From the NCBI GenBank assembly GCA_964016885.1, contig OZ024746.1, positions 75,826,001-75,890,000 on the forward strand: a stretch of DNA of 64,000 nucleotides, read 5' to 3'. Positions 15,701 to 55,950 of this stretch are shown piece by piece. Position 1 is the first letter of the stretch. Each line of letters begins with the position of its first letter. The stretch is from Eledone cirrhosa (lineage: Eukaryota). A program made the translations under genes and the position numbers. A model generated the notes under the pieces. That model saw only the letters and a program-made list of their open reading frames with translations. It was not told the origin of the DNA and did no database searches.

Positions 15701-18700
15701 GTGACAAAAATAATTGTTTTGCAGCAGGGGAGGAGTATGGTGGAGAATGTGAATGTAATTCCGATTCATATTCATCACGCTCCCTTTTATGTGGCCGTCC
15801 CTGAAAATTTATTTTTCACTGATTAATATCCATAAAATTTATTTAACTATTTAATTTTTATAATAATGACTTTACAAGAACTTGTATTCAGTTTCTTTGA
15901 AAAAAACCAAAACAAAACAAAAACCCCAATGGAAGGAAATTGCAGTAGAGTAAGACTGAGAAAGACCTGGGCAGAAGTGGTGAGAATTGATCTCAAAACC
16001 TTTAAGAAGAAATGACAAAAGAACACAATAATTAGAGGCAGGTTGTGCTGGAAACAACCCATCCAAGCATAGAAAAGTGGACATAAAAAGATGATGATGA
16101 TGATGATGATGAAACAAATACACATATTTATATTCAGAATATTCATAACAAAAACAAAGGAGCCAATTTTCAGATTGGACCAAAAAAATTGTTTCCATTG
16201 CTAATACTCTTTGTCGGTTGCAATTGCCGACAAAAGGAGGCAGGATTTGAACTTAAAATGCAGAGCTGGATCAGATACCACAAAGTATTCCACCTAACTC
16301 TTTAACAATTCTGCCAATCCACTGCCATCGAATGGACGAAAGATAATGTTAATCTCGACAGGATTTGAACTCTGAGCACAGAGAGTCAGAACACATTTAA
16401 TCTGATGTCCCACCGACTCTGCCATTTTGCATCTTTGGAAATTCTATTCATTATGAAATATATAAGGGAGGAACAAATTTGTGACACAAAAGACCAAAAT
16501 TATTACTGCAAAATGAATTCTCACAAATGCATACTTCTTTTTAAGATATTTACTGTTTAGGATATGTAAGGTGGGACTTTGATGGTAGGTGTTACACATG
16601 AAAAATTACAAGAAAATCAGTTATATCATTAGATAGCTAAAACAGCTGTATCATTATATAGTTAAATGGGTCAGGGGATTATACCCTAATCCACATTCCT
16701 TAAGAAAATAACTGACAAGAAAGACAGATATATAAATCATGTATTTATACATACATCTTCATGGTGTCTGTGTTTCTCCTTTTCACTGGATTTTTTCTTT
16801 TTCTTCTTCTTATGTTTGTGCCTCCGTTCTTCAGTGTCCCCAGTATAAACTTCGGGTACTGGCTCAGTAACTTTTAATACCAATTTTAGTGGTTTCTCAG
16901 ATGGTTTCTCTGAAAAAACAGAAACAGATTTTGATAGAATGAAATTTTTTTTCATGAAAAAATGAGCAAATGGTTCATATTAGTGATATACTGATAAGGA
17001 AATTGATGAACTACTAATTAATCAACCTTGCCTTATTGATTGAGAGACTGATTATTCATCTGCTGTTTATCTATCATATAATGTAATTATGTGTTATGAT
17101 ATGAAAATTCATATTATAATTATTTGTAGGTAATCATCATCATCAATATTTCATAATTAATCACAAATTGAGTGCATATGATGGCAATATGAGGTTGATT
17201 TTGCCCAAACGAGCCTGCAAGCAATTGGCTATGCTCTGAGAATGAAGAAATTTTAATGTTTTTCCATTGTAATTTATGAGTTCTTAAATTTGATTATAAA
17301 ATTTTATTTTTTGTTTGAGTAAATTAAGATAACAGGAATTGTTGTTATTGGAAAATGTTTGAACGTCTTAAAATAAATAAGTAATGGGAATTTTTATCAT
17401 TTTAAAATTAATTCCTTTTTAAAAGATCTATTATACACATATCCTCTTAAGTAGGTAGGAGAGTCATTCTACTTTCACACCCTTTAACATACAGGGAGTT
17501 AGGTCCCCTGGGCAGTCCCAAGTAATTCCCTATTGTGTAAATTAGAGTGTTTGAGCACTAGGAACAGAGTTGTATTACACTGGTGGGCCTTGATTCTGTG
17601 TCCTTCTCAAATACTAATTTTATACTTCTAAACTATCTATATTTTAACCCTTTTGATACTAACTCAGCCAAAACCAGCTCTGGTTCATTTTAAAGGATAC
17701 CTACTTAAATTGAAATTTAGTGACACGACAAAAAGCATCCAATCTATCGGGTACTACAAAGAAAAAGCATCAAGACCACCCTGTCTGATGGTCCCTTTGG
17801 TGCCACGATAAAAAGCACCCAGACCATACTGTAATGCAGTTGGCGTTATGAAGGGCTCTGAATGTTTCAGTCCCCAGGTATTTCAACATAATAATACATG
17901 GGTCTTATATAAAATTATGTTGGAAAATTTAAATTTAAAATAGAAACCCTTTGACCATATTTCTCATGAAACATACACTATTTAAACTAATTAACAAAGA
18001 ATTCTGAGGGATTTACTAAAATTATCAATTAAATATTAGTTTACAAATGAAATAATTAAAGATTTTAGTAAATTCCTCAAAATTCTTCATCAACTAAATT
18101 AAATGGAGTTAGAGTCAAAAGGATTTAAAATTAACCTGGCTAAGACCAAAGTTCTAGTTTGTAGGAAAGAAAACAAGGCGGCGGTCCCTTCTGGGAAATG
18201 GTCGTGCTCGGTGTGTAGGAAAGGCGTAGGTAGAAACTCCATTTTATGTCCTAAATGCAAAGTATGGGTGCATAAAAGATGTAGTGGGATCACAGGTAAG
18301 CTAACTAAGAACATAGATTTTACATGTGGCCGGTGTTCTGGTGCAATAAGTAGCAGCAAGTGCCCACAAAATACTAGCTCTTTCAATTGCGCAGAGGGTT
18401 CTATAGAAATAGTGGACAGCTTCCGTTACCTGGGCGATAAAATCAGCAGTGGGGGAGGGTGCTCTGAAAGTACTGTAGCTAGAGTCAGAACTGGTTGGAA
18501 AAAGTTCAGAGAGCTTATACCACTATTAGCTGCCAAAGGGTTCTCCCTAAAAATGAAAGGCAGGTTGTACGATGCCTGCATACGAACAGCAATGTTGCAT
18601 GGTAGTGAGACCTGGGCATTGTGTGCAGAGGATATACGCAGACTAGAGAGGAACGAAGCTTGCATGCTCCGCTGGATGTGTAACAGTAATATACGTGAAC

Positions 18701-21700
18701 GGCAAAGCATAAACGAACTAAGGAAAAAATTAGAGATAAGAGGGATCAGATGTTGTTTACTCGAGAGAAGGCTGCGTTGGTATGGACACGTGATGCGCAT
18801 GAAAGTCGATAGCTGTATAACAAAGTGCAGGGCAATAAAGATAGACGGTAGCCACGGAATAGGCAGACCTAGAAAAACATGGGTTGAGCTGATAAACTCC
18901 GACCTCACACACTTACACCTCTCCAAGACAATGTCACTGGACCGAGACCTTTGGCGGTACTCAGTAACAGAGAAGACCCGCCTTGCCAGTAGGCATCTCT
19001 AACAAAATACACCCCGTCCCGCCACCACCCCCACCCCATCCACACCACCCCGTTCTATGTAAAGTTATGTTGGTGCCGCGCCATCCAGGCCGAAACAAAT
19101 GAGATCGTGTAGGTGTCACGACAAAAAAAACACACAGTCCACGCTGTAATGTGGCCGTGTAGGCAACACGGTAAAAACCTCCCAGACCCACACTTTAAAT
19201 GTGGTTGGTGTTAGGAAGGGCATCCAACTGTAGAAAACCTGCCAGACAGTCCTATGCGAACAAGACAATCACTCTTGCCTCAAGTGGGACTACCCCCGTC
19301 CAAACCCATGCAAGCGTGGAACACGGACGTTAAACGTTGATGATGATGATGATGATGATGATATTTCATTAGAAATGCAGTCTAGAATGTTGACTGCTAT
19401 TTATTTGATGAAATGTGAAGTTGACTTTAGTGGATTTGAAGTTAGAACATAAAGGGATGTAAATAGATATTGATGTTTAAAATTGATGCAATGACACACA
19501 TTTTGAGAGAGGATATGGTTGATTAAATTTATTCAGTACTTGACTGATACTGTATTTTCTTGACTCCAGAAAGATGAAAGGCAAACTTGACCTAGACAGG
19601 ATTTGAACTCAGAACATAAAGGGCTGTAACAATTTATTGCAAGGCATTTAACCATCTCTGGTATTCAATCACCCTTAATTTGAAAATAATAAAATTCTAA
19701 AGATTAACTAATGATTCTCACCAAACTGTCTACAAACCCTACTGAAAACAAGACATCGACACCATGCACACCCTTGTGCTTTTGCTCTTTTCCTCCCCTC
19801 ACCACTCTTGCATAATTTCCCTTCCATTTTGCCTATTGCGCACAACATATGTCCACTCTTCTCTTGATAACCCTATCATCAGTCTTACTTTCCATATCCC
19901 AATCTCCAAAAGAGACATCAGGTACTTGGCCATCATAAATGGGTTGAACTCTTCACTTGTTTCACCCAGGTTCCCCATGTTGAATTTTAAAAGGAGTGTC
20001 CTTTTATGCATGGGATACTTTATGCTGTGCCCTGTTCATATGTAATCATACTCAACATGCGTTCCTTTTTTTAGGCAGTGTCAGATGCCTTTCCTGGTAG
20101 CAACTTCCTAGGAAGTTTCTTGGGTGTTTTTTATGATAGAAACCTCAGTTTTATTATGCTGCCATTTTTATGAGTGCCGGAATAGATACCATACGGTATC
20201 CTGTCTGATGCTCTAACACCTCTACTAATTTACTGCCCTAGACTAGTACTTTATTTATCAAAATCTGAATGAACCAAAGACAAAATTGACCTTGGTTTGA
20301 TTTGAACTCAATGCAGAGCAAATATTGGAAGGCATTTAATACATTTGGTACCAACCAAATAAAAACCACCTTGGATTTATTATACTGAACCACTAATTTT
20401 AAGAAGTTTATCATCATCATCATTTTAATGTCTGCTTTCCCTGCTATCAGGGGTTGAATGGGTTTACATAAACCAAATCAGTACTGAAATGGGGCTATTG
20501 ACATCCCAGACAAGCTAGGGACCTGTTCATCTCATGTATGGTCCCATGTTTTACCAAGTGCACAGGAGAGGTTGTCATGTCTTTATCCTTATATTAAAAT
20601 CGTCCATCATAATTTTATTTTAGATATTTTTGTTAAGTAATGAAAAACAGTTATTTTATTGAATTTCCAAATTTTGGGTTATTTTCAAAATTAATTGAAA
20701 GCCATAGGCAGTGTATTTTATTAGAAATATGGTAATGGAAGGGTTAATCATATAACATTAAGACAAGTATAATACTTTAGATAACGGGAGTTTACATAGA
20801 TTCCATACCTGTTTAAGAATCAATTATTTATTTCCCATAAATAATTAATGAATATTATACAATCAAAAGTATCTAATAATTGTATATAATGTAAATACAG
20901 TGTTTTCATGTGAAGGCACATGGCCATATGGTCACTACACCAATTTTTAAATATATTTAAGCAACAACACCGAAATTCTTGAAAATTCAATAAATACGTT
21001 TCTTTTCTCTCGTAACATTACTCTATAAATTGCTATTTTAAAGTCACACATTAGGTCACATTCATCACAGTACTTTAGGCACAAGGTAGGCATTTTGGGA
21101 GGAGGGAAAATTTGATTACATCAACTTCAGCATGTGTGCTTTATTATTATTGTTATAAGGAAAGCTCATATTTTTTGTTACCAAATTGCAATGCATAGGA
21201 TTAATGCATCGTTCTATAAACAGTAGACAACGAAGAATTTAGAAATATTTTCAGAATTTTATCGAAAATACAACAAAATATGAGTGCATCAAAGATTTTA
21301 GTTAATAATAAACAACTGCTAATCAAATAAGTTTAATGGTAAGCATAATTTAGTATCATTTTCATTTCTCAAGTCTTTAAAAAAATAGGTCGGAAATCGC
21401 ATTCTTAAACAAAGCAACGTATTTTTTTTAATGTTTTTTTTCTCTTTCTCTAAAGAACTCAGTTTTTACAAAGCACTGCTAGAAATAATTATTCTTAACT
21501 CTCAATTAAAAACAAACTTAATTTGCTAATAACAGAAAAATAATTTGATATTTTAAAATAAGAGATAGGACATAACAGATGTATCCATTGTTTTGCGGAA
21601 TAGTTAAAGATCTCCACAAGCTTTAAAGAATCGGAGCATTTTGATAAGATCTGATAAACTTTTAGATGCAAATATATGAATTTTTAGATATACTTACCTT

Positions 21701-22450: not shown

Positions 22451-23879
22451 TGAAGTATTTTATTTATTACTATTTTTAAATTATTGTTATTTTATGCAAT
22501 TAATTATATTTATCTGCGTGGTTGTTATATAAATTATATATTTTCAATCGAATTAGTTGGTATATTTATTTTGTCATTCATGGATTTATCGGATAAACGG
22601 TGCTTTTTCTTGCGCAAACTAAAGACGTGTCACTCATTGTGTAAACTAAACATCTCGTTCTTCGTTGTAGTAAAGTATTTATTTACTTCTAATAAAGTTT
22701 TCTCTTTTTATTTAGCGCACTCGTGGAATTCTATGTTTGTTATTCTTTGAACTTTCTCGATATTTTTGGCTCCAAAGTCTATCACTTATCAGTTATAAGA
22801 TCTTAAATGGAGCTTTGCAATTACAATTTGATTCTTGGATAAATAGATATAATATATACTCAAGCGGTTAAATTTACTAAAAACAACGATGTCATCAATC
22901 AGAAAATAATGTTAGTGTTGAAAATTGAATTAATTCTTCACAACTGATTTATATCTGTTTCTTTCGAAATGACTTTTTGAAATCGTATCTCGGTTTTACA
23001 ACGAACACGTGTTTGTTATGATGTTAAACGATGTATAAGATATTGTCCGTGTGTTTTACTTTTTACCAGGGTCGTATTATTCTTAAGGTTGACTAGGCTT
23101 CAGCCTAGGAGCCCATCAAATATTTCCCCCTGTAGTAAGGTGAAAGACTGAAGTGTCAGTGAGGGTCCGACATACATTATAGCCCAGGTGCCGGACCATG
23201 GGTTAAGAGTACTTTTAACAGTATTTAACAAAACTGTTTATGTGATTTTTATTTATATTTGTTACTTTTACTCATCGTGTATGATTTATTATTTATCTGA
23301 AATGCTTTGTCATATACAAAAAAAAAAAAAAATGTTTTTACTTTGTAACTCCAAATACTTAAAATATGCTGCTAGTGCACGGAATCCTCAATTTAGTTTC
23401 AATTCTAATACCTTATGTCACTAATATCATTGGTAATGTCCCACTAACACGTTTTCGTTCTAACACATAGGAGAAAGGTTCAAACAAGTCAAATAAATCT
23501 GATGTCATGAGGAAGAACAGACATCTAACGTTTCTAATCCTTCCTTGGAGTCCCACTCCACACACCTTAGTGAAATATCCAATAGATGTAACTGATGCAA
23601 AATAAGGTGGTTTGTTCTTAGCTAATAACTTCTCTTGTAGTTATCACATTAACAAAATTATATCTGTGGTTCCATATCTTTTGCACAATCCAAAAATACA
23701 TAAATCATCCAGGGTCGCTTGTTCAGCAAGAAATAGTCATAAATTTCCCTCACAAACAACAATCTTTAAAAAATGGAGGACATATAAACGAATGGGGGGT
23801 TATTGTCGGAACACTTCTGGTTCTACGCCTGTTTGATCAGAACTGACCCCCCCCCCCCCCAAAAAAAAAAACCCAACCC

Positions 23880-24140
23880 CAAACGCTTCTTATCCAAGTT
23901 GATCCTATCTGAAACTAACTTAGCTGAAATTCTTTCTGACACTTTTAATACTGAATCTATCATTTCAAGATCTTTGTAATTGCTTCTATCCAATGCCTCT
24001 CCATTGCTCTTGTAACAGTTTACAATGATACTGTTATAGTTATGCCTGCCATTTGGGATAACCCCTTTCTGTCTTACACAATTATTTAAACAAATGACTA
24101 GCATAATTGTTGCTTTCATCATCTCAGCAACTATCCGTGA
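23880..24140 (-). mobile_element. Old RTE LINE RT fragment
   Basis: SIIVNCYKSNGEALDRSNY aligns to SIIVNCYKGKGDALDRSNY in copy 2. Confidence 0.75.
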
Positions 24141-25719
24141 TAAATCTAATATTTTCTGTTTTCTTAAAAGCCTTTCTTACCACGCTGAAGTTAATCTCAA
24201 TAACTGGTCCTCTTTATGTTGTGATTGTCACAGCTTGAATGCTGTTGATCATAAGTTGGTTTATTTTATATTGTAATTGATAACATTTTATTGGTTATAA
24301 ATTTTCAAGGGATCAGTTACTGGTTCACTACATTTCTGATGGAGAGGGTAACAAGGAAATATTTGTAACACAGTGCAGAACAAATATCACACAGAACTTA
24401 ATTCAAATTTTACACACACACACATATGATAGGCTTTTGCACAGTTTCTGCCTCCTAAATTCCCCTCTCAAAATATTAGTCAACTGAATGCTATAGTAGA
24501 AACACTTGCCCAAGAAGCTGTGCAGTGGGGTTGAGCCTAGAGCTACATGGCTGCAAAGCAAACTTCTTAACTGCATTGAAATACCTGCACCCAAGCATAC
24601 ATATTTCCCCCTCAGTTTGTTTGTAACCCTTAAAGAGAAATGTGGTTTGTCAAGTAACCGTTATAGAAGAATATGGTTTGCCATAAAAACAAGCTTTGAA
24701 GATTGATAGGCAAAACTTTCAAGGGACATAACTTTGCTTTGACGAGAGTATTATGATGCAAAGTTGGTTAATTACTTAAAAAATCTTTCACCCTTTTCAA
24801 GATGGTAGGTCAGTGGTTCTAGAAAGGTCTTCTGTGACATACTGATTTGCAGTAAAATGTTGCTTGGTGCACTCCAAAAATAATTTTTAGAACATGTGAA
24901 AAATACAAACTGAAATGTTATGGTTCATTTAGTGAATGAAAAAGTAATACCTACTGTAGTTTAAATTATTTATATTTAAAAGATAAAATATATAAATATA
25001 TAAGAGTAGTAACTTCAAGTAAATGTTCATCCATATTGTGACAACCTGTACAACCTATGGCAGCAAAGAAAAGCAGAAATATAATGATGGTGACTTTATG
25101 TACAAATTCGCAAAAATATTTTTATTTGCTCTAAAGTGTGCCATAATTAAAAATAGTTTGGAACCACTGTGATAGGGTTTATTTAACCACTGTGATAGGG
25201 TGTATTTAACCACTATCTCTATCATGTTGAGTGACTCCATATAGGCTCTGTAGTTGACTCATGGTTATGTGGTGCTAGTAAAAATTCCATGATTTACCAT
25301 TTATGTTAATAGCTTCCTTTTTACTCTCTTACTGGTTTCAGTCATCTGACTGCACCCATGCTGGGGTACCACTTTAAAGTGATTTTGTTGATCATATTGC
25401 CTCCAATACTTATTTATATTTTTAGGACTGGTACTTATTTTACTAATTTCTTTTTTTTTTAGCAGTTATGGGACATAAACACAGACATGGAGGTAAATGT
25501 GGACACACACACACCCTCATATACATACATACCATATGTGTGTGTATATATATATATTTATTCCATTTAAGTTATTTTAATTACCTGAAGGTAGAACTGG
25601 TGGTTCTGGTAGGCAAATCATGATGTAACAAAGCACTCAACATTATGCAATCTTCCAGTCCGGCCTTCTGTTGTCGTTATATATATATATAAGAAACTCA
25701 CTCAGATGGCGAAAGGGTG

Positions 25720-26317: not shown

Positions 26318-26552
26318 GATATACTCTGCTCCGCGTAAGCATCGAGTGCGCAAACGATATACCGCCTACAGACGCATTTATTGCAACCTTACAACAACTA
26401 TATATATATATATATCTATATATATATATGTGTGTGTAAAGCTAACCCTGCTTCAGCAGAAAAAGGACCTTCAAATGCTTGTTGTGTTGTAATTAACATT
26501 GCTGGCATATATGCAATACTAATTATACTCTTTCTTCCATTTTTTTTTTTAG

Positions 26553-26949
26553 ATTTCCTTGTATTCGAATTATAAGCAGAACTAGCAATAGTTTCTGCTG
26601 GAGAGCTGGCTGCTATAAGAATTTGTCTAACTACCATCATGACTATATTAATAAGCAATTACTATTACCTAATGTCTACAGTACTACTGGGAAAAAATAT
26701 TTTTCATCATTTCTCAATGGCCAGCATAATAAACATGTATCTCAACCTGTTGGTTTGTACTCTTTGTGGTTTCAAAGAACATTTTTCAAAAGAAGCCATA
26801 AACCTGTTCTATTTCGCTCAATAACCACTAGACAAAAGACAAAGGAAGCCCATCGTAAACGGACTATACTAATCTATATTTGTTCTGTGGGGATTATCAT
26901 GGTTGGAATGAGTTATGCTGGTGTTCCACTCTATCGACTATTTTGTCAG
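26553..26949 (+). CDS. COX11: COX11 exon (presequence-like region + TM helix)
   Basis: T-rich TTTAG acceptor, CAG|GTAAAT donor; YAGVPLYRLFCQ. The 5' boundary needs a phase-2 upstream exon. Confidence 0.85.
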
Positions 26950-29900
26950 GTAAATATTGTATTCCTGTTCTTTTTCCTTCTTTTATTCTACTCCTAGAAT
27001 GTCAGATAAATGCTACAATGTATTCATTTCAGCTCTCTGCACTCTGAGTTCAAATCCCACCAAGGTCAACTTTGCCTTTCATCTTTTTGAGATTGATAAA
27101 TAAATTACCAATCTAGTATTAGACACAGTCGTTTATCTCTCTCTCTTTCCTCGTTTTCTGGAAGTAATCAGCTGCACTCAGACATGGAACAGATGGGCTC
27201 AACCAGGTTTAAAATGCTCAAAACAACGACAGACCTACTACTGCAGGAGTTCAGCAGCACAGATGGACTTCAGTCATAAGACTACTACAGCCATGCTGGG
27301 CCGCTGCTTTCAAGAGTTTAGTTAATTATTTATATCGCCCCGCTCTTTCAGTACTTTCTGTGGTACACAACTTTGAGTTAGCCCATTTTAGAGTTACTTA
27401 CCCTTAGTAATGTAAATAGCTTTAACGTTTTCGTTACCATAAGTGTTTATATTTATCTAAAAACCTTCCACCATATTATTATACTAGAAACTGTTATATG
27501 AGGTGCAAAGTTTGTTATTGCAGCAAACTCTGAACTTTAATGTCTCTGCCATGATCACTTCTAAATAGCCACACATATCTAAAATGCTCCAGAATACTTC
27601 TAAATACCCACACATATCTATAATGCTCCAGAATACTTCTAAATACCCACACTATAATGCTCCAGAATACTTCTAAATACCCACACATATCTATAATGCT
27701 CCAGAATACTTCTAAATACCCACACATATCTATAATGCTCCAGAATACTTTTAAATACCTACACATATCTATAATGCTCCAGAATACTTCTAAATACCCA
27801 CACATATCTAAAATGCTCCAGAATACTTCTAAATACCCACACTATCTATAATGCTCCAGAATACTTCTAAATACCCACACATATCTACAATGCTCCAGAA
27901 TACTTCTAAATACCCACACATATCTAAAATGCTCCAGAATACTTCTAAATACCCACACATATCTATAATGCTCCTGAATACTTCTAAATACCCACACATA
28001 TCTATAATGCTCCAGAATACTTCTAAATACCCACACATATCTAAAATGCTCCAGAATACTTCTAAATACCCACACATATCTATAATGCTCCAGAATACTT
28101 CTAAATACCCACACATATCTAAAATGCTCCAGAATACTTCTAAATACCCACACATATCTATAATGCTCCAGAATACTTCTAAATACCCACACACATCTAT
28201 AATGCTCCAGAATACTTCTAAATACCCACACATATCTACAATGCTCCAGAATACTTCTAAATACCCACACATATCTATAATGCTCCAGAATACTTCTAAA
28301 TACCCACACATATCTATAATGCTCCAGAATACTTCTAAATACCCACACATATCTATAATGCTCCAGAATACTTCTAAATACCCACACATATCTACAATGC
28401 TCTAGAATACTACTAAAATACGATTCTAAAAAAACTCATGTTGTTATGGCCCATGTTTCCATAGTTACAGTCAGCCTCTCACGAGGTTACATTTCATGGG
28501 TATTTTAATAATAGGGGTCCAATTTTATCATGTTACCATTTCTCTGGTGACAGGAGATGGGATTTGAATGCAACTCCCAGAGCCAGGACAAGAATTGTAA
28601 AGTCTAACAACACTCTCAAATTCACTGTAGCAATAACTAAATACTTATTTAGAGCTGGGTGGATTGGGCCATTTTGAGAGTTAACTGCCATAGCCTCTCA
28701 CATTATGTTACATTGTAGCAGGTCATACATGACATACCATTATTTAGGGTCGATAAAATAAAGTACCAGTAATGAACTGGGTAATTGCTGGCCTTGTGCC
28801 TAAAGTAGAAACAATTATTTAAGAGTTTAGAGTTATCCTTCTTTTTTATACATTGTAAATATTTTCCTATTTAAGGCCACTGGACTAGGAGGTCAAGCAG
28901 TTGCAGGACATGATAAAAATCGAGTGGAAAATATGAATAAAGTCACCGACAGAAGTATTTTAATACGGTTTAATGCCGATGTATCTTCAAGTATGCAATG
29001 GAATTTTCGTCCCCATCAGCCATCTGTAAGAGTAAGTGATCTTTAATTCTAAATTTCCTCTCTCTAACACTTCTGAATATTATCTTTATTTTATTCCACT
29101 CTGCCTCTCACACACGCATATATAAATCTTATGAATTATTGAAGCTCTGTGAGTGTTTGAAATTTGAAATTGTGTGAGTCCAAACAGAAAATAACTCTAA
29201 TAATAATTGGTCATTATAGATAACAGTTGATAAAATTGGGTAAATTACTCTTAGAGATGGAAAAAATAAGACACCTACAAGGTGCCTCAGTCCACATCCA
29301 TTGGAGCATGTTTGCCTGATTTCTTTCCAGTCTTTGCAAGTTCTTTGCTTTCAAGGCTCCACTCTCACTTCCATGTAGCATCACAGTTCATGCACTGTAA
29401 CCATACAAGCTGCCTTTCACTCTGAGAGAGAACCCTTTTGTAGCCAGCAGATGTAGAAGGTGCCTGTCTACTTTTTTCCATCTCTAAGTACAATTTACTT
29501 ATTTTTCTCAACTATTATCTATAGCGATTGATTGTTATTACATTTATTTCTGCATTTGGAACTCTCACATTTTCCAATTTTCAAACAAACACACACATAT
29601 TATACACACTGAAACTAAGTATACTCTAAAGTTAGTGTTATATATAAGCTAATCAGAGAAACCGTTTTGTGTTAAGTAAGGTATCACAGAGAAATGAAAC
29701 ATGGACAGTAACTGTAAAAGATCAGCATCAATAATGGAGAAGTTATTTGTGTATAACCTGGGATATATAACCTGGGGGGAGTGATACCATTAAGGCTAAT
29801 TAGGCTGCTTTCTTGGGTACAGATCTCAGGAGGACGCATTACTGAACCTTATTGGATCACAGAATTATATGAATTTATATCATTAAATTCAATAATATAT

Positions 29901-32900
29901 TTCCTGTGATCAATAATTAATTGGTAAATACCTTTGCCAGGTAGCAGCATTGTGGAAATATCCAAAGTGGTGAAGTGGATCATATGGTATTATCATCTGT
30001 CACATCTATAGCTCACAATTATATTAATAGTAATGCATATGTATTTATATATTTTTATGTTTATTTTTAACCTTTTTTTTAGGTTTTACCTGGAGAAACA
30101 GCTTTGGCTTTCTATTCAGCAAAGAATCCGACTGAGAAACCTATTATTGGTATCTCTACATATAATATTATCCCATTTGAAGCTGCAATGTATTTTAATA
30201 AGATTCAGGTAAGCCCACATGAAACTAGATATACATTTTACATTTTATATATTCAAAAGAATTTTTAATACTCTCATATTTCCTGAGTTTTTAAAAAAAT
30301 AGTGTGATGTGCTTCTAGTTTTGAAAATGTCAAGCAGTGTCAATGCAAAGTGAAGACACATTTGTTCACAATCACACATTCACATGTTCTTACATGTGTG
30401 CAAACATACACACACACTGATGCCCCCCCCCCCCCCCCACACACACACACATGCACAGTCACACTCACCCATAGAGTTAAAATTGTTTTAGGAAAACCTG
30501 TAAAATGTTAGTTAAAAATAAAGGGATGAAAATAGGAGTAAAATAAGACAATAAAAGGGTTTACACTTTTACCTTAAATTTCATGATATTTTGGGGTTAG
30601 CCCACCTTTTCATAAGAAATTGTAGTGTGATGGTGGTGGCAAGCTGGATTCAGATATATGGGTCTGGAAGAGTGGTGATATCTGTAGACTGTTATAGTTA
30701 CAATAGCTAACCAGCTTTATGCAATTCATGCCTACTGTTAATAGGTATTAATCTATTGATGAGAATTGCCTCTTTCATTCTCAATTTCTGATGGTTAATT
30801 TGGTGGCTTTGGTAGTGACTTTGATATCTTCGGCATGACACTTCTGTGGGTGATTTTTAATAGAAGAAGCACTTGTGTGGATGTGTTCTTTAATCTGAAT
30901 GAGAAACTTGTAGACAGTCCTTCCAATGTATGAGCCACCACTTTTGTACATCACATAAGACCTCTGGTGCATGCACCACATATTTACACACAGAGCAGCA
31001 GCTGTAACAGCTTTTCTAAGCTCTACTTTTCCATGCTGACGTGGGTTGGATGAAATGTTTTGAAACAGTGTTTTACAGCCAAATGCCCTTCCTGATGCCA
31101 ACCCTTTTAGTCACTTCTTACAACATGCAGGGAAATGGTGCACCTATTCAAAAGCGGAAGCACATGGTTAAATATACATGTTAGATAGAATCTGAAACCA
31201 TGTGGTTGTGAAGCAAACATCTTAACTATCTAGCCTTCCTTTCTACTGCTAAGGTCGATTTTGCTTTTAATCCTTCTAGGTGCGGCTTGATCAAATAAGT
31301 ACCAGTCTTGTCTAAGTCTAAAGTCTGTCTCAAGCCAGGAGTCTCATCATGGTAGTGCTTATCCTGGTTTCCGTGGTGTGAAGTAACTGAGAGTACAAGA
31401 CTTCCCCTGGACAGGATGCCAGTCTATCATAGAGTTAAACCCCTAGCTACTGCTGGTACTCATTTTCAGCTGAGTATACTGGAGCAATGTGAAATGAAGT
31501 GTTTTGCTCAAGAGCACAACACACAACCCAGTCTAGGCATTGAACTCATGACATTATGATCGTAAGTCCAACCACTAGGCCACATACCTCCAGTACCACC
31601 CTCATCTTGTGGTTAATTTAATCCTTCTGTTACCATATATATAATGAAGATACTGCCTATGGTTTTCAAATCATTTTGAAAATAATCAAACATTTGGAGT
31701 GATTTAGTAATAGAATTAATTTCCCCATTATTAAGCGGGTGATTGATTGGCAGAGTCGATAGAATGTCAGACAAATAGTTAGCACAACTTGTTTTGGCTC
31801 TTTAGGTTCTGAGTCCAAATCTCACTGAGATCAGTAAGGTGTTCTGGAAGTATGTTCACGCAAAGCAGAGGCCTCACTCTCCAGTTGGTCCTCTTCGCAA
31901 TCCCCACACAAGCCAAGTTGCTGACGACCCCAAGGAATGCGCAGAGCTCATTGCTGAATGCTATGCAGGCATTTTCACTGTTGAAGACCAGAGTGTACCG
32001 TCTCCACCACCTATGACACCGGATTCTATTACAACTATGGAATTTACACCTGCAATGCTGCGACGTCACCTTAAAAATAAACGCAACCATGCCTCTCCTG
32101 GTCTTGATGGTGTTACGTACCTGCTTCTCAAACGTGGTTGGTACTTCCTTCTGCACCAGCTATCACGCTTCTTCCAATTCTGTCTGAACAACGGTGCTAC
32201 TCCAGAACAGTGGAAAACTGCCAGTATCATTCCTCTGTTCAAAAAGGGTGACCGCACATCACCTGTGAACTATCATCCAGTCAGTCTTACTAGCTGCATT
32301 GCCAAACTGATGGAACTTCTGGAACACTCACAGTCTTATCCGGCCCTCGCAATTTGGATTTATCTCTAACTCCAGCTGCTGTGATCAACTTATCGAGTTT
32401 CTTGAAGACATCACCCGGATCACTGATGGCGGCTCATGGGTGGATATTGTTTACCTTGACTTTGCTAAGGCTTCTGGCAAAACTCTCTGCAATGGGTGTG
32501 AAGGCTGATCTTTTTAACTGGTTGAAGTCCTTCCTTCTCAGTCGAAGAGAGGTAGTCACGGTTCTAGGACACCATTCCTCACCATATGAGATGTCATCTG
32601 GTGTACCACAGGGATCTGTTCTTGGCCCCCTTTTGTTTGTGGCATATATTAATGACATAGATGCCAACTTAAAGAATGCCACAGTACTGCAATATGCAGA
32701 TGACATCAAGCTGTACCTTGAAATAAAAAGGACAGACCCTGAACACTATAGATCTTGCCTGCAATCTGACCTGGACACAATGCAACAATGGATCACCGAC
32801 TGGCAACTCAAGCTAGCTGTGGACAAGTGCACACCTTCATTTTGGGAGTAAAAACCCAGCGTCCACATACTCCCTCCACAGCACTAATATCAAGAAGTCT

Positions 32901-35900
32901 TCTTGTGAACGTGACCTAGGCATTACAGTCAGCAGCGATTTGCGTTGGACGAAGCACGTCTCTAAAATTGTCAAGAAGGCCGAGGGTGTTTTAGCATCAC
33001 TCAGCAAGACCTTTGTCAGCCGCTCTATTTAAAGCTGTACATAGCTATGGTGCGACTACACTTAGAATTTGCATCACCAGTCTGGAACCCCTATCTTGCT
33101 CAGAACATTGACCGCCTGGAAACAGTTCAGAGACGTGCAACCAAGCGAATACCCTCCATCAGGCTTCTACCATACTCTGAATGCCTTGCTTCCCTGGGCA
33201 TGGATACATTGAAGCTCCGACATCTGGCAACTGACTTGGTAAACACCCACAAAATTATTAACCATCTTGCCAACAACAACCCTGAGTACCTTTTTGATTT
33301 CCATGTGTCTAACACACATGGACATGCCCACAAAGTCAGAAAACAGCACAGTTCCCATGACTTTTAGAAACATTTTTTCACGCTCAGAGTTGCTGAAGCA
33401 TGGAACAAACTACCTGCATCAGTTGTTAGCTGTCGAGACACTGCATCCTTTAAAACCTCAATGCTTCCTGAGATTCGCCAACACTACACCTAATATTCCC
33501 CCTCTATACACATGCACACATGTATATCATGACTCATACACTATTCACTTCCCGACATTTGTATATTATTCTATGTACTATACATGCACCTTTGACGAGT
33601 TGTAGTGCACCTGAACACTTTACACAATAATTTCATTATTATTATTATCAACTTTTCCTTTCATCCTCCTGGGGTCGATGAAATACAGTATCAATAAAGT
33701 TCTGGACTTGATATAATCGATTTTCCCCTCCGTTCAAATTGCTGTCATTATTAAGCTAATAAAGTACCAGTAATGTACTGGGTAATTGCCGGCCTTGTGC
33801 CAATAGTAGAAACAATTATTAAGCTGTAGATTGGCAGTATCGGTAGGGCGTCAGGCACCATGCTTTGCCGCATAGAGTTATGGCCCTTTATGATCTGAGT
33901 TTAAATGCCGCCGAGGTTAACTTTACCTTTCGTCCTTACGGGGTCGATAATAAAGTACCAGTAATGCACTGAGATAATTGCTGGCCTTGTACCAAAAGTA
34001 GAAACAATTATTAAACTGGTGTTTGGTACATAATATTATAGCGGAAAGTTTTTAGATAAATATAAACATTTAAAAACAAACATTTTTGGAATTATAGAAC
34101 CAAAATGCATCTAGAAAAAAAATGCATCTTTATGACTGTTAGATATAATTAATTCTGCTTTTATTTCTATACTGTCGAATATTTTTCAACAAAGTTAATA
34201 AACCATCATCATCATCATCATCATCATCAACGTTTAACGTCCGTGTTCCACGCTTGCATGGGTTTGGACGGGGGTAGTCCCACTTGAGGCAAGAGTGATT
34301 GTCTTGCTCGCATAGGACTGTCTGGCAGGTTTTCTACAGTTGGATGCCCTTCCTAACACCAACCACATTTACAGTGTGGGTCTGGGAGGTTTTTACCGTG
34401 TTGCCTACACGGCCACATTACAGCGTGGACTGTGTGTTTTTTTGTCGTGACACCTACACGATCTCATTTGTTTCGGCCTCGATGGCGCGGCACCAACATA
34501 ACTTTACATAGAACGGGGTGGTGTGGATGGGGTGGGGGCGGGGGTGGTGGGACGGGGTGTATTTTGTTAGAGATGCCTACTGGCTGGAGTAGGTTTTACT
34601 ATATATTTAGGTAAGGCGGGTCTTCTCTGTTACTGAGTACCGCCAAAGGTCTCGGTCCAGTGACATTGTCTTGGAGAGGTGTAAGTGTGTGATGTCGGAG
34701 TTTATCAGCTCGTCCCAGGTTTTTCTAGGTCTGCCTATTCCGTGACTACCGTCTATCTTTATTGCCCTGCACTTTGTTATACAGCTATCGACTTTCATGC
34801 GCATCACGTGTCCATACCAACGTAGCCTTCTCTCGAGTAAACAACATCTGATCCCTCTTATCTCTAATTTTTTCCTTAGTTCGTTTATGCTTTGCCGTTC
34901 ACGTATATTACTGTTACACATCCAGCGGAGCATGCAAGCTTCGTTCCTCTCTAGTCTGCGTATATCCTCTGCACACAATGCCCAGGTCTCACTGCCATGC
35001 AGCATTGCTGTTCGTATGCAGGCATCGTACAACCTGCCTTTCATTTTTAGTGAGAACCCTTTAGCAGCTAATAGTGGTATAAGCTCTCTGAACTTTTTCC
35101 AACCAGTTCTGACTCTAGCTACAGTACTTTCAGAGCACCCTCCCCCACTGCTGATTTTATCGCCCAGGTAACGGAAGCTGTCCACTATTTCTATAGAACC
35201 CTCTGCGCAATTGAAAGAGCTAGTAGTTTGTGGGCACTTGCTGCTACTTATTGCACCAGAGCACCGGCCACATGTAAAATCTATGTTCTTAGTTAGCTTA
35301 CCTGTGATCCCACTACATCTTTTATGCACCCATACTTTGCATTTAGGACATAAAATGGAGTTTCTACCTACGCCTTTCCTACACACTGAGCACGACCATT
35401 TCCCAGAAGGGACCGCCGCCTTGTTTTCTTTCCTACAAACTAGTACTTTGGTCTTAGCCAGGTTAATTTTAAGTCCTTTTGACTCTAGGCCGTGCTTCCA
35501 TGTTTGGAATTTCTTCTCTAGCTCGGCCATTGATTCCGCTATGAGTGTCAGGTCGTCTGCGTATAGGAGTTCCCATGGGCAGCCTGTCTTGAACTCCTCT
35601 GTTATAGCCTGAAGGGCAATAATAAATAGTAGTGGGCTGAGAACAGAGCCCTGATGGACGCCAACTTTTACGCTAAACTCTTCACTATATTCGTTGTTAA
35701 TTCTAACCTTGCTGACTGTTTCTTTATACATGGCTTGTATAGCCCTCACAAGCCATTCGTCAACGCCTAGTTTTCTAAGAGCCCACCAGATAATGGAGCG
35801 GGGGACTCTGTCGAAGGCTTTCTCCAAGTCGACAAAAGCTAAGTAGAGGGGTTTACCTTTAGCTAGGTACTTCTCCTGTAGTTGTCGTACTATGAAAAGA

Positions 35901-38900
35901 GCGTCTGTGGTACTTTTGCCTGACACAAACCCGAACTGCATTTCATCTAGGTCAATTCTCTCTCTGATTAGTTGCGCTATTACTTTTTCCGTGACCTTCA
36001 TGACCTGGTCGATTAATTTAATGCCTCTATAGTTACTCCTATCTAGGGCGTCTCCTTTACCCTTATAACAGTTAACGATGATGCTGCTATGCCAGTCCTT
36101 CGGAACAACCCCATTCTGTACGACTTGGTTAACTATGCGGGTGACCATGGTGTGTCCCACCGTGCCAGATGCCTTCAGCATCTCAGCAACTATTTCCGAA
36201 GGCCCAGCCGCCTTACCCGTCTTCATATCCTTGATTGCCTTACTTATTATACTCCCCTCGACTAACACTGCTGGTCCCTCTATTGGGTCGATATGGGGGA
36301 GACTGCCTTTCTCCCAATTATTCTCCTCATTTAGTAGCCTTTCATAGTGACACTTCCAAGCTACCTTCTTATCAGCGTCGGTGATGGCAAGTGTGCCATC
36401 GTCGTTTAACTTATTAAAACCTTTTTATTGTTGAAATTTTATTTTAGTAATTAATCAGATCAGATAGCAAGTCGATAAAATGTTCGAAGGTGGTAAAAAC
36501 ATAAAACGAAGTGAAAAGGTGACAAAAAAAAAAGAAAAAAAAACAAACATTTGTTAGTGAAAGTAAGAGTTATCACCCTTATATCACTCAAACGTATAAG
36601 CTGAAATATTCGTAAAACTAAAAGGTGTGAAGATGATTACAGATATTCTTTTATTAGTTTTAGTTATTAGACTGACGCCATCCTAGGGTCGCTCCTTGCA
36701 GGGATTGGCTCCAGTATTATTTTTTTCAAGTCTAGTACCTGTTTTATCGATCTTTTTTGTTGAGCCACTAAGTTATGGGACATATATACAGACACATATA
36801 TATATATACACATATCATCATCGTTTTATGCATGTTTTTCATGCTAGCATGGGTTGGACGAGTTGTCATGTTCTGTGACTATGACAGGTCAGATGACTAC
36901 GTCTTGCTCATATGTTCCATTTTGGCAAGTCAGATGCATAGTTAATCAAGTAGGCCACTGTATCTAGCATTTGTAGATCTGGAGAAGGCCTTTGACAAGG
37001 TCCCATGCTCTCTAATCTGGTGGGCACTTAGGAAGCTAGGTGGAGATGAATAGCTTGTGAGGGCTGTGCAAGCCTTGTATAGAGGAACAACCAGCAGAGT
37101 GAGAGTTGGCAATGAGTACAGTGATGAATTTGAAGTGCAGGTGGGAATCCCCCCAAGGATCAGTCCACTCCTATTAATTATTGCGTTCCAAGGGAGCTCC
37201 TATATGCTGATGACCTAGTCCTCATAGCTGAATCTGTAGGAGAGTTAGAGGCAAAATTTTAAGCATGGAAGAAGAACCTAGAGTTCAAAGGCCTAAATGT
37301 AAATTTAGCGAAGATGTACATCTTAATAAATAGGAAGAAGACAGGGAGGTGATACTCTCAGGAAAGTGTCCAGAAATGCCATAAGGTGTATACAATGTAA
37401 ATTATGGACACACAAGAGATGTAGAGGGATTACAGGTAGGCTAACAGAAAAGTTAGACTTTATATGCAGCAGATGCACAGGGGAAGTGAGCACAAAGAGC
37501 ACATATGAAATAGATTCATTCCCTCAGCTGCCAGGTGGGCTCCCTAGAAGTTGTTGAGCTTTCACTACCTAAGCAATCAAATTAGCAGTGGGGGAGAATG
37601 CACTGAAAGTGGGATAGCTAGGATAAGAACAGGCTGGAAGAAGTTTAGAGATCTATTACCACTGCTAACAATGAAATACTTTTCCCTCAGAGTGAAGGTA
37701 GACTGTATGATGCTTGTATGTAAACTGCAATGCAACATGGCAGTAAAACATGTTCCTTGAGTACAGAAGATCTGCAGAGGCTAGAAAAAACGAAGCGAGT
37801 ATACTCTGATGGATGTGTAATATTAGTGTGCATAAGTGATATAGCATAAGCAAACTAAGAGAAAAACTTGGCAGAAGAGGAATTTGATGTAGTGTGCAAG
37901 AGAGAAGACAGCGTTTGTATGTACATGTGATGCACACAGAAGATAACAGCTGTACAAAGAAATGCAGAGAAACCCCAGTGGCTGGGACCCGTGGAAGAGG
38001 CAGATTCAGGAAGATATGGGATGAGGTTGTGAAGTGATTGGTGATGAGAAGGGTATCCAGCCATGGAGGGCTTCTCAAACATAGGGTTGCGAGGACCCTT
38101 CAATCATGTCAAGGACATGACAGCTTCCCTAGTGTTTGGTGATCTTTACATTGAATGCACCCAGTACACGCTGTAAAGTAGTTGGTGATAGGAAGGTCAT
38201 CCAGCCATAGAAAGCTTGCCAAACAAAGAGTCAGGAGGACCCTCAGTTGTGTGAAAGACATGACAACCTCTTTTGTGCACTCGGTAGAATGTGAATTTGT
38301 TATGGTTCATGCATTAACACTTTATAAAATCTGCTGAGTGCAGTTTCTTGTATTGCTAGTACTAGAGCAGGGGTCGGCAACCTTTTGGAGAGAGAGGGCC
38401 AAACAGCTATGCAATGTCATGGAGGAGGGCCATGTTATTAAATATGTAAATAAATTTTCTGGAGGTTTAAAGCAAAACAAGGAATTTAATATAATTTTAT
38501 TTTAACAAATCCCCCTTATTTTACTGCAGGAATAACAGAAAAACAACTACTATCACAATCAAGAAAAAAAAAAAAAGCATATTCTTTGCTACAAACGAAA
38601 TACATTTAGAAATGGTAAATGATTTAATGAGACACTTGTTTCTGCTTATTGTGCAATAACTTCTCCACATCAGGTGAAATATTTGTCGATGACAGGAGCA
38701 AAACATCATCCAGGTGGTCGTTACGCAACCCTGTTCTTAAATGACTTTTAGTATATTTCATTTTGGAAAAAAGTTGTTCACAAGCATATGTACTCCCAAA
38801 TAATGATATCATCAGTTTCGCATTAGTCAAGATGTTTTTATATTTTCCTCTTGGCAATATATATATCTTGTAGAAGTCAGCAGTGGATTCGAACTGAAAT

Positions 38901-41900
38901 TTCGATAACAAAGATTCGTCGCACTGTAAGTCAATTAACTCCAACTGATATTCTTCTGCCACTTGCTCCACATCTGTTTCGTAAGGAGTACCAAATAACT
39001 TAAATAGAGTTCTATATTGCCGGAAGTCAGTAAAACGAGAAGAAAATTTGCTTCTCAAATCCTTAATAGAGCTCACAAAGATGTCTGGTATTATATCTCT
39101 CTTGTGATTTTGGAAACTTGGGAAATGAGAGTAGTTTCCTTTTTGAAGTTGTGATTCCCACAGTCGAAGTTTTTTCTCAAAAGCAGTAATTTGACCAAAC
39201 ATCTCAAATACAACCTTGTTCTTTCCTTGAAGCTCAAGATTCAAAGTGTTCATGTGGGTCGTGATGTCCACTAAAAAAGCTAACTTGACAACCCACTGTG
39301 GATCCTGAAAGTAAGAATTATCTTGGTCTTTGCTCTCTAAAAATATGTAAGGTTGCCATACTCTGCTTCAATTTGTTTTAGAAATTCTTGAAACTGGCAG
39401 TGATTTAGTCCTCTTGACAGTATAAAATTCACTGTTTTCATGACCACTGCCATGATGTCCTTAAAATTCAGTGACTTTGCACATAATGCTTCTTGATGAA
39501 TAATGCAATGAAGTTTGATTAGTTTTTGATCAATACTGATGTGGTTTTGGAGCAATGCAACAAACCCCTTTTTCTCGCTAACCATTGCTGGTGCTCCATC
39601 TGTGATTACTCCAGAAAGCTTTGATAAATCCAGATTCATTTCGGTAATCCATTTTATTTTGCTTTCCAAAATATCTGCTCCAGTGCTACAATTCTTCCAC
39701 AATATCAAATTCTTCCACAATATCAAATGTTGGTGTTACACCCCTCACAAACACTGCAAGTTGACAAGTATCCTTCATATCTGTGGTTTCATTGATAGCA
39801 ATGGAATAATATTCCAGATTATTTAAAATGCCCTCCAAGCCACTTCTAACATTTGCTGCCAGCTCTTCAATTCGCCTTGTTACTGTTCTTGCCGATAAGC
39901 TGATCGCAGAAAATAATTCCCTTTTTTCTGGACAAACAACATCTGCTACCTTCAACAGTAATTCTTTGAAGAAATCTCCATCAGTAAAAGGTTTCATCCT
40001 TTTTGCAATTAGTTTTGACACCTCGTAGCTAGCACAAGTGTTTCGGTCACTTTCTTCAACTTTTCTAGTGAAAAAGGATGATTGCTTTTTTACATTATTT
40101 CTCAGCCGTGCAACTTCGTTTACTCGTGCTTTTCCAGTAAAAGTGTTGTAATGATTATGAGTTTCATAGTGCCGTTTAATATTTGAAACTTTCTTCACGG
40201 CAATGGTTTATTGACAAATTAAGCAAACACATTTTCTGAAGTGCTCAATGAAAAAATAGCTAAGTATCCAGCCATCGTTAAAAGTTCGGCACTCCAAATC
40301 CACTTTTCTTTTCTTAGCTTCCATGGGCTTGTTTTTGTTCAAACAAAAAAGATTTATGGAAAGGAAAAAGAACAAAATGTATAATAATCAAAATGAAGAA
40401 ATAAGAAACAATAAAAACAAATGTAAATGCAAATACAGTAATGTGATAAAATATGATAATTGTGAATAAATTATATAAAACCAGGTTTCTAACGACGTTG
40501 TTAGATCAGGATTGCCATTTGTTTTTTTAAATCACTTTTGGCCTAATTCTAATAATAATAATTCACACAATTTATCACAAATAATTAAATAAACGTTATT
40601 ATCGAATAAAGATACCTACTGTATAGTTGTTATACCGCCAGACAACAAACTCAGATGAAAATACTCTGGGGAGGAGGGAACGAAGTAATTTTTCCAAGGA
40701 CAGCTTTACCTTGTGCCGGGGAACACAGGTAAGGTCAGGCAAACGGAGACGACAATAATTTACGAGTGATTTTATTGAATGACAATATGGGTATAAAAGC
40801 GAGTTATGCGAACCGTAAGGTAGTATACCTTCCAGTCGCTGACAAAAATGCATTCCTCCAGCCAACATTTGTGTTTGTTGACTGGAACAAAAACACATAC
40901 AGGAAATCACAGGAAATAATAATACAGGTGATATATTGCTTGGCGGAAAGCCCAGAAAAAGATGGATAAGAGGAAATAATAATAAATGGAAAATATAATA
41001 AGGTTACAAAGGTATCTGTAAATATATACGGTATGAGCAGCGATTTGTGATGGGCATCAGGTCGGCACAACCTTGAAGTGAACTACTGTATCTGTATTCA
41101 ATACTAATTAGATAATTAGTGTAAGATGGCGGGCCAGACAAAGATCACTCGAGGGCCGGATGTGGCCCGCGGGCCGGGGGTTGCCGACCCCTGTACTAGA
41201 GAGATTGTCATTTACTCGACAAGATTGAAGAGTCTTCTGTAGCTTATATTGTCTTCATGTGATTTGTCTCAGATGACAGTAAATCCAGATAAGAAATGAC
41301 TTGGATCATGATGACCTATTCAAACTATGCCATCATGGAAAGCTAACATGATGATGAAAGTACGTCAATGAAAGTGATAGCTGGTTTCCTAATGAACTGG
41401 GTTGGTGAGGAATTGGCAACAATGAGTAATATTAAATCTGTGCTATGCACCTACTCTGGCTCCTGAAAACTATTAGGCCCTTGTCCCTTTACAGTTCCAC
41501 TACTAATGTAGTTTATCTGTTCTAGTTCACTCAGAATAAATAGGTCTCTAAGTTAATCTACTCCTGTATCATTGTAGCTGCCCATGGAAACGTTGAATAC
41601 TTCTCTATGTTTTTATACTCATTATTTATGTTAAATTAATGTTAATATTGAGAATGTGCTATAGTTTCAAGGTCTTCTGATGTTATGTTGGCTTGTTTGA
41701 ATGTAAATTGTATGACTTTATTGGAACATATCTTTGGTGTGTGGCCTAGTTGTTAAGATGATAGATTTTCTGGACTGGGTGGTGTGTTGTGTTCTTGTTG
41801 AGCAAGATCCCTCATTTCATATTGCTTCTCATAATAGGACTAGGGATGTTATAAGTAAAACATCTTAGAAAACCCTATGGGAGAAGACTTCATAGGAGAT

Positions 41901-51016: not shown

Positions 51017-51655
51017 ATGTTGTTTACTCGAGAGAAGGCTACGTTGGTATGGACACGTGATGCGCATGAAAGTCGATAGCTGTATAACAAAGTGCAGGGC
51101 AATAAAGATAGACGGTAGTCACGGAATAGGCAGACCTAGAAAAACCTGGGACGAGCTGATAAACTCCGACATCACACACTTACACCTCTCCAAGACAATG
51201 TCACTGGACCGAGACCTTTGGCGGTACTCAGTAACAGAGAAGACCCGCCTTACCTAAATATATAGTAAAACCTACTCCAGCCAGTAGGCATCTCTAACAA
51301 AATACACCCCGTCCCACCACCCCCACCCCCACCCGATCCACACCACCCCGTTCTATGTAAAGTTATGTTGGTGCCGCGCCATCGAGGCCGAAACAAATGA
51401 GATCGTGTAGGTGTCACGACAAAAAAACACACAGTCCACGCTGTAATGTGGCCGTGTAGGCAACACGGTAAAAACCTCCCAGACCCACACTGTAAATGTG
51501 GTTGGTGTTAGGAAGGGCATCCAACTGTAGAAAACCTGCCAGACAGTCCTATGCGAGCAAGACAATCACTCTTGCCTCAAGTGGGACTACCCCCGTCCAA
51601 ACCCATGCAAGCGTGGAACACGGACGTTAAACGTTGATGATGATGATGATGATGA
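51017..51655 (+). mobile_element. Young RTE LINE 3' end (copy 3)
   Basis: Almost identical to the reverse complement of 34204-34847; (GAT)n tail. Confidence 0.95.
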
Positions 51656-55624: not shown

Positions 55625-55950
55625 GAGTGTCTTCATCATATTTCTCCTGGCCATAACAGAGGAGTTTAAAACTGGCTGTCCATGGGAACTTCTCTCTGCA
55701 GATGATTTGGCCCTTATAGTCGAATCCATAAAAGAACTAGATAAGTTCTGACTATGGAAACAAAATTTGGAATCAAAGGAACTGAGAGTAAACTTAGTCA
55801 AAACTAAAGTACTAGTAAGTAGGAAAGAAGATAGAACCCTGATCCCTTCAGGGAAGTGGCCCTGCTCCATATGTAGAAAAGAAGTTGGCATAAACTCAAT
55901 ATGGTTTACTCAATGTAAATCTTGGGTTTTTAAGAGATGTAGTGGGATAA
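55625..55950 (+). mobile_element. Old RTE LINE RT fragment (PHD-bearing family)
   Basis: AITEEFKTGCPWELL.ADD..VNLVKTKV..WPCSICRK.VG.NSI..QCKSWV.KRCSG. Confidence 0.85.

Follow-up and report, generated by a model that had tools for sequence, protein, structure and literature searches.

A LINE of RTE type in the octopod Eledone cirrhosa carries a C4HC3 PHD finger inside its reverse transcriptase (RT) domain, encoded on the reverse strand of the window (the whole stretch of 64,000 nucleotides of contig OZ024746.1 that was analysed; Table 1). By sequence comparison, the finger is the mark of a whole old and widespread lineage (octopus, clam, hydroid and catfish) and not a local oddity. PHD fingers are already known in LINEs, and Pfam-based labels already show the co-occurrence of PHD and RT; it is the position within the RT that appears to be new.

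The finger and its position in the reverse transcriptase

The reverse-strand frame at 34607-36424 runs for 605 residues without a stop and lacks the endonuclease because of the 5' truncation of this copy. Translation of 35392-35261 gives the zinc ligands C345-x2-C348-x10-C359-x2-C362-x4-H367-x2-C370-x14-C385-x2-C388, with W365 two residues before the His and F383 two residues before Cys7. The Pfam PHD model (PF00628) was covered in full by residues 345-388, with 24.4 bits for the whole ORF and 32.9 bits for the finger alone (curated cut-off 24 bits), and RVT_1 matched residues 129-329 of the same ORF. C1 and RING identities were rejected, as their Pfam models scored under their cut-offs. NLAKTK is found at ORF residues 321-326, and the finger sits between YADD/NLAKTK and FRYLG, i.e., between RT motifs 6 and 7. 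The first-pass annotation, made from the sequence alone, had named a PHD finger with this Trp and aromatic placement, had put it between YADD/INLAKTKV and FRYLG and had proposed an HMM check of PHD against RING; the translation agrees exactly with the first two statements and the Pfam scores decide the third in favour of PHD.

The AlphaFold model of the ORF (pLDDT 92.5, pTM 0.88) places the finger after the motif 6 strand (320-330) and before the strands running to motif 7; the finger region itself has a pLDDT of 88-94 and the two short strands expected for a PHD, and the finger alone, modelled from single-sequence input, gave a poor pLDDT of 51. Fold searches with the whole model matched RTs only, including the L1 and R2 RTs. 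Query residue 328 was aligned to R2Bm 666 (one of the two alignments was weak in score), and therefore R2 loop 6a (672-677) corresponds to the linker before the finger. According to the available text of PMC10499050, it is this loop that reads upstream target DNA, and deleting it prevents the nick. The first-pass annotation had noted neither this positional match nor the (TA)n target preference described below.

Table 1. Features of the window (positions within the 64,000 nucleotides)
Feature	Position	Strand	Remarks
Older fragments of the PHD-bearing LINE family	8378-9434, 23664-24167, 29293-29476		
BRD7/9-like exons	12784-15273	-	DUF3512, bromodomain
Young 5'-truncated copy no. 2	18110..19361	+	identical finger at 18205-18336
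COX11 exons	26497-30265	+	
Tandem array, 30-base unit	27829-28435		in COX11 intron; open in three frames
CR1/L2-like LINE	31806-33650	+	short motif 6-7 linker; (ATT)n tail; genomic copies 95-97% identical
Young 5'-truncated copy of PHD-bearing RTE-type LINE	34204..36408	-	(GAT)n tail; 99.8% identical to full-length genomic copy
Open frame	34607..36408	-	RT fingers and palm, PHD insert, motif 7, thumb, C-terminus
FRYLG, RT motif 7	35162..35176	-	ORF residues 417-421
PHD finger, C4HC3, Pygopus-like	35261..35392	-	ORF residues C345-C388; net charge +10
Variable linker behind motif 6 strand	35393..35440	-	positional equivalent of R2Bm loop 6a (residues 672-677)
YADD catalytic motif, RT motif 5	35552..35563	-	ORF residue 288
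Old decayed copy	36965..37967	+	finger Cys3-Cys8 recognisable
Broken hAT-type transposase	38624-40207	-	weak Spin-doc zinc finger match
Young short 3' fragment	51018..51653	+	stops short of finger
Old fragment	55649..55948	+	finger Cys1-Cys4 recognisable

The element, its copies and their surroundings in the window

The element is a young, abundant single-ORF APE-RT LINE in the octopod genome, of probable RTE type by its layout and by its motifs (the tree given below includes no named Repbase RTE). The octopod nature of the host agrees with a BRPF exon of this genome, 100% identical to that of Octopus vulgaris and 99% to that of Argonauta. Full-length copies have one ORF of 1056 residues (APE endonuclease, RT and PHD) and apparently no ORF1, as judged by viewing their upstream sequence. 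A (GAT)n tail was present at 75 of 79 and 39 of 40 genomic loci in two samples. From 63,565 candidates in its own genome, all 150 scored matches were 100% identical over 117 aa, so that the finger is not a chance feature. In 40 evenly spaced regions with a total of 398,000 bases, 22,474 bases belong to coding parts of the family (at least 5.6%). Among viral contigs, no relative was found.

Both young copies that span the finger have it intact, as previously annotated. The same annotation had called it recognisable in two older copies, and this stands for partial fingers only, neither being complete: near 37.4 kb the first Cys pair is gone and Cys3-Cys8 are kept, and near 55.9 kb Cys1-Cys4 are kept, the His is replaced by Phe and the copy ends after Cys6. 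Its further statement that all copies lie in introns of housekeeping genes holds in part. COX11 exons were identified at 30080-30208 and at about 170 kb in window coordinates, presumably belonging to one gene, and the copies at 34-56 kb fall between them; the 18 kb copy lies between a BRD7/9-like exon and COX11. With at least 5.6% of regularly sampled DNA taken up by the family, one window makes a weak argument for active-gene targeting. The window is mostly CpG-poor, which agrees with the genome-wide bias reported below and proves nothing alone. The BRD7/9-like exons diverge from the COX11 exons, and the next COX11 match, about 140 kb downstream, implies a very long intron.

Distribution and phylogeny of the finger

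Of the 116 rows that could be parsed from a search with the finger region, 113, the query among them, had an intact finger (5 further rows were unparsed). When only the RT core was searched, the best 120 of 3135 matches comprised 91 intact fingers, 5 mutated ones and 24 truncated or unparsed sequences, and none of these 120 had a short linker. Among 79 metagenome loci, found with a search pattern that favours the finger lineage, 29 intact, 20 partial and 30 broken fingers and no short linkers were counted. Named carriers are Hydractinia (hydroid), Neoarius (catfish) and Mercenaria (clam), and the ESM Atlas holds clusters automatically named PHD/RT in Mollusca and Cnidaria; the finger was also found on one short contig of a nematode assembly, where contamination is possible. 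Copies of the present animal LINE (P0002 and P0137) had been deposited as bacterial MAG proteins, likely through host contamination.

Clustering at 50% left 150 RT-core representatives, 12 of them with the finger, 5 with a partial one, 83 with a short linker (for the most part very similar copies from a single fish family) and 50 uninformative. The distance from YADD to motif 7 is about 132 residues with the finger and 69 in the short-linker relatives, i.e., about 63 extra residues, and the RTs of the two kinds are 40-48% identical. The short linkers agree with the earlier claim that a PHD is not a standard part of an RTE-type RT; the sharing of the finger by octopus, clam, hydroid and catfish, together with its invariant ligands (see below), likewise upholds the claim that it is ancestral and retained.

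In an RT-only tree of 48 rows, 29 finger rows and 4 short-linker rows formed a clade (99/94), outside of which, as sister elements, were placed the short-linker elements of a plant (Orobanche) and a fish (Hemibagrus), both of which we take to be RTE by their motifs. A constraint keeping the 29 finger rows together was not rejected (p-AU 0.35). A single gain fits the sequences, whether a single loss is added or not. Because four short-linker elements (P0242, P0246, P0251 and P0362) fall in or beside the PHD clade, the finger is dispensable for some close relatives; these four represent natural finger-less controls.

Conservation, pocket and charge

All eight zinc ligands were invariant in 110/110 aligned relatives (kept from 121 sequences; of the 11 left out, four nearly duplicated others and seven were broken or could not be parsed, and three of the 11 have a mutated ligand). 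Identity to the query was 66% in the N-terminal half of the finger and 61-63% in the RT core, 39% in the more variable C-terminal half of the finger, and 15% and 9% in the two flanking linkers. Between octopus subfamilies, the pN/pS values of the finger were 0.11/0.65, 0.24/0.96 and 0.06/0.18. Judged from these comparisons, the finger is conserved like the RT core and kept by purifying selection.

The solved fingers closest to the family profile are Pygopus PHDs, and PF27108, which was found on many relatives, is PHD_Pygo. In the Pygo pocket, as described in the available text of PMC2726290, W366, Y341 and D352 form the walls, with V350 and A356 as its base, and mutation of E360 abolishes H3 binding. 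Aromatic-343, V/T-352, S/A-356 and W-365, the equivalents of Y341, V350, A356 and W366 in that description, were all kept in 106/110 relatives and in 13/15 divergent representatives (V, S and W in 15/15), so that four of the five Pygopus pocket positions, and in addition I357, are kept in the family. Unlike the Pygopus PHD of the same source, the family finger has no equivalents of D352 and E360 (an acid follows Cys3 in 1/110 and occurs in the D352-equivalent loop in 2/110), its loops are shorter and it is strongly basic. The net charge was +3 to +12 in 110/110 relatives and +1 to +9 in the 15 divergent representatives; in eight host PHD fingers it ranged from -10 to +5, with 5/8 negative. The pocket thus looks intact, yet the predicted electrostatics would favour DNA over a free H3 tail. 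A conserved histone-like N-terminus as internal ligand was rejected, the N-termini of the elements being variable.

A second non-LTR family of the genome (L244-L249, e.g., G000:C25:20009680-20009817, with many C25 neighbours) has a basic C4HC3 PHD upstream of the RT, without a Trp two residues before the His; its RT motifs are presumably those of the CRE clade.

Insertion sites

The insertion-site matches were drawn from two contigs only (C1 and C2), and several measures were tried. A purine-pyrimidine microsatellite, mostly (TA)n, was present in the 30 bases directly downstream of 39/75 and 21/39 young copies, compared with 5.9% and 5.2% of control positions, and an upstream one was found at 33/64 young copies; the three young copies of the window are not within (TA)n-type arrays. 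A T-rich target signature of RTE elements, tied to the 3' repeat, has already been published (PMC6007223, from the available text). One PHD-less element (a single case) also ends in (TA)n, and the preference need therefore not depend on the finger.

Methylation depletes CpG over time, and the observed/expected ratio of CpG (o/e) was used as a proxy, from sequence alone, for methylated gene bodies. With unmasked flanks, a first test gave no significant difference (o/e 0.48 vs 0.64, n = 37, p = 0.15). The masked tests, which followed this null result, lost between 17 and 38 of the 76 flanks: with the family and microsatellites masked and the sample doubled, o/e was 0.43 in 59/76 flanks and 0.67 in 78/80 controls (p = 0.009), and with all repeats masked it was 0.28 (48/76) and 0.59 (75/80; p = 7e-4). 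Another family copy is present in 45/76 flanks; flanks without one, repeats masked, had an o/e of 0.29 (21) vs 0.66 (57). Microsatellites are not the source of the bias, because their density rises with CpG o/e in the controls. Evenly spaced regions with the family had a lower o/e than the others (0.25, n = 16, vs 0.66, n = 59; p = 0.002), and those with PHD-less LINEs showed no bias (0.58, n = 17, vs 0.60, n = 58; p = 0.71); family-only and PHD-less-only regions differed (p = 0.039), the PHD-less control consisting of 17 of 80 evenly spaced regions with LINEs of other clades and not of finger-less RTE. CpG-island-like windows were not enriched (16/59 flanks vs 35/78 controls), nor was there any excess of them in the unmasked test.

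In octopus, according to the available text of PMC9476566, 5mC lies on the bodies of highly or broadly expressed genes and not on transposons. For E. cirrhosa we infer that low CpG is likewise a sign of the methylated bodies of genes with broad expression, and the CpG-poor sites of the copies are likely the bodies of active genes. The steering toward active genes proposed in the first-pass annotation hence survives as a correlation, the copies lying in CpG-depleted DNA and PHD-less LINEs not; a promoter or H3K4me3 version is disfavoured.

Possible functions of the finger

We tentatively prefer, at a little short of an even chance, to regard the finger as a chromatin tether that biases insertion to CpG-depleted methylated gene bodies. 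Its basic surface would likely grip target DNA, by analogy with R2 loop 6a, and its conserved pocket of Pygopus type would likely hold a methylated histone lysine; the two grips together may then bias insertion to CpG-depleted gene bodies, with the finger as the putative cause. A mark of gene bodies, e.g., H3K4me1/2 or H3K36me3, would be a better fit than H3K4me3 at promoters. The final step, in which AT-rich or (TA)n DNA is nicked and priming uses the (GAT)n tail, would likely be determined by the endonuclease together with the end of the RNA. The tether is supported because the Pygo pocket is kept, the charge is basic, the position is that of R2 loop 6a and the low-CpG bias is absent from PHD-less LINEs, and it is weakened because the finger lacks the acidic H3 contacts, most host PHDs are acidic, the second PHD-bearing element of the genome is also basic, and selection after insertion or local clustering could mimic the low-CpG bias.

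The same basic charge, lack of acidic H3 contacts and loop position (that of 6a, DNA-reading in the available text on R2) would also suit a pure nucleic-acid binder, holding target DNA upstream of the nick or its own RNA, with the Trp and the aromatic residue stacking on bases; the gene-body bias would then come from chromatin openness, transcription or selection. The strong (TA)n preference (60/114 copies vs 5-6%) and the single ORF without an ORF1 RNA-binding protein speak for such a binder, which we nevertheless consider possible but somewhat doubtful: V352 and S356, on the floor of the pocket, are conserved no less strictly than in Pygopus (as far as described in the available text), PHD-less LINEs have no low-CpG bias, and one PHD-less element also ends in (TA)n, so that (TA)n need not depend on the finger. 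It is less probable still that the finger binds a non-histone partner, a host factor or some other part of the protein of the element, and so helps the RNP to assemble or to enter the nucleus, or the RT to be processive. Pygo PHDs do have a second, protein-binding face (PMC2726290, available text), and the confident model shows the finger suspended by variable linkers from the tip of a hairpin; yet the BCL9-binding C-terminal half of Pygo in that text is the variable half here, and the N-termini of the elements are not conserved. A classical H3K4me3 reader steering to promoters, to which the conserved Trp two before the His and the aromatic residue before Cys1 would point, is very improbable, being disfavoured because there is no excess of CpG-island-like windows and the finger has none of the acidic H3 contacts, such as an acid after Cys3, in nearly all relatives. 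That the finger is a neutral passenger in a tolerant surface loop hardly deserves belief: one related branch does without it, but in RTs that are just 45% alike it is as conserved as the catalytic core, flanked by linkers free of constraint, and pN is below pS, a conservation by which this explanation is largely refuted.

Comparison with known systems and implications

A chromatin-reading module biases integration in chromodomain LTR retrotransposons and in LEDGF-tethered retroviral integration; those systems are integrase-based, whereas here the module is placed on a target-primed RT. With RTE-clade LINEs the element shares a single ORF with APE and RT, a short microsatellite 3' tail and 5' truncation, and it differs from them by the extra residues with the PHD between motifs 6 and 7. 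For RTE-2_OV of Octopus vulgaris, compared by description only, the available text of PMC9115989 reports a C2H2 finger but not a PHD. The PHD-bearing CR1/L2 LINEs, a plausible donor of the finger (Pygopus being another candidate), also have a LINE-borne PHD with best structural matches to Pygopus (2vpb, 3zpv), but theirs is in ORF1 or at the ORF start and not inside the RT domain, as far as the available text of PMC4120745 describes them; host targeting was suggested there, with no functional study of any LINE PHD as of 2014 (Metcalfe and Casane 2014). R2Bm shares an insertion between RT motifs 6 and 7; its loop 6a has six residues, belongs to a site-specific RLE element and is called unique to R2 (PMC10499050, available text), whereas here a whole zinc domain is inserted in a non-site-specific APE element. 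A PHD between RT motifs 6 and 7 was not described in the literature that we searched (a scope outside which lay Repbase Reports and most subscription journals), and the available text of PMC11203168 and PMC3849965 holds nothing on a PHD inside the RT.

It is an open question by what means chromatin is chosen by APE-type LINEs, and this choice is directly testable in the present lineage because it has many near-identical intact copies, finger-less relatives and a measurable bias. The motif 6-7 loop, called R2-specific, here serves for a second time as the site of a bolt-on module, which bears on the retargeting of RT-based gene insertion tools. It is possible, if somewhat doubtful, that an old animal RTE lineage built a nucleosome reader into its RT and inserts into the methylated bodies of broadly expressed genes; if true, it would be the first LINE with its own module for targeting a chromatin mark, and it would drive the introns of housekeeping genes in octopus to grow.
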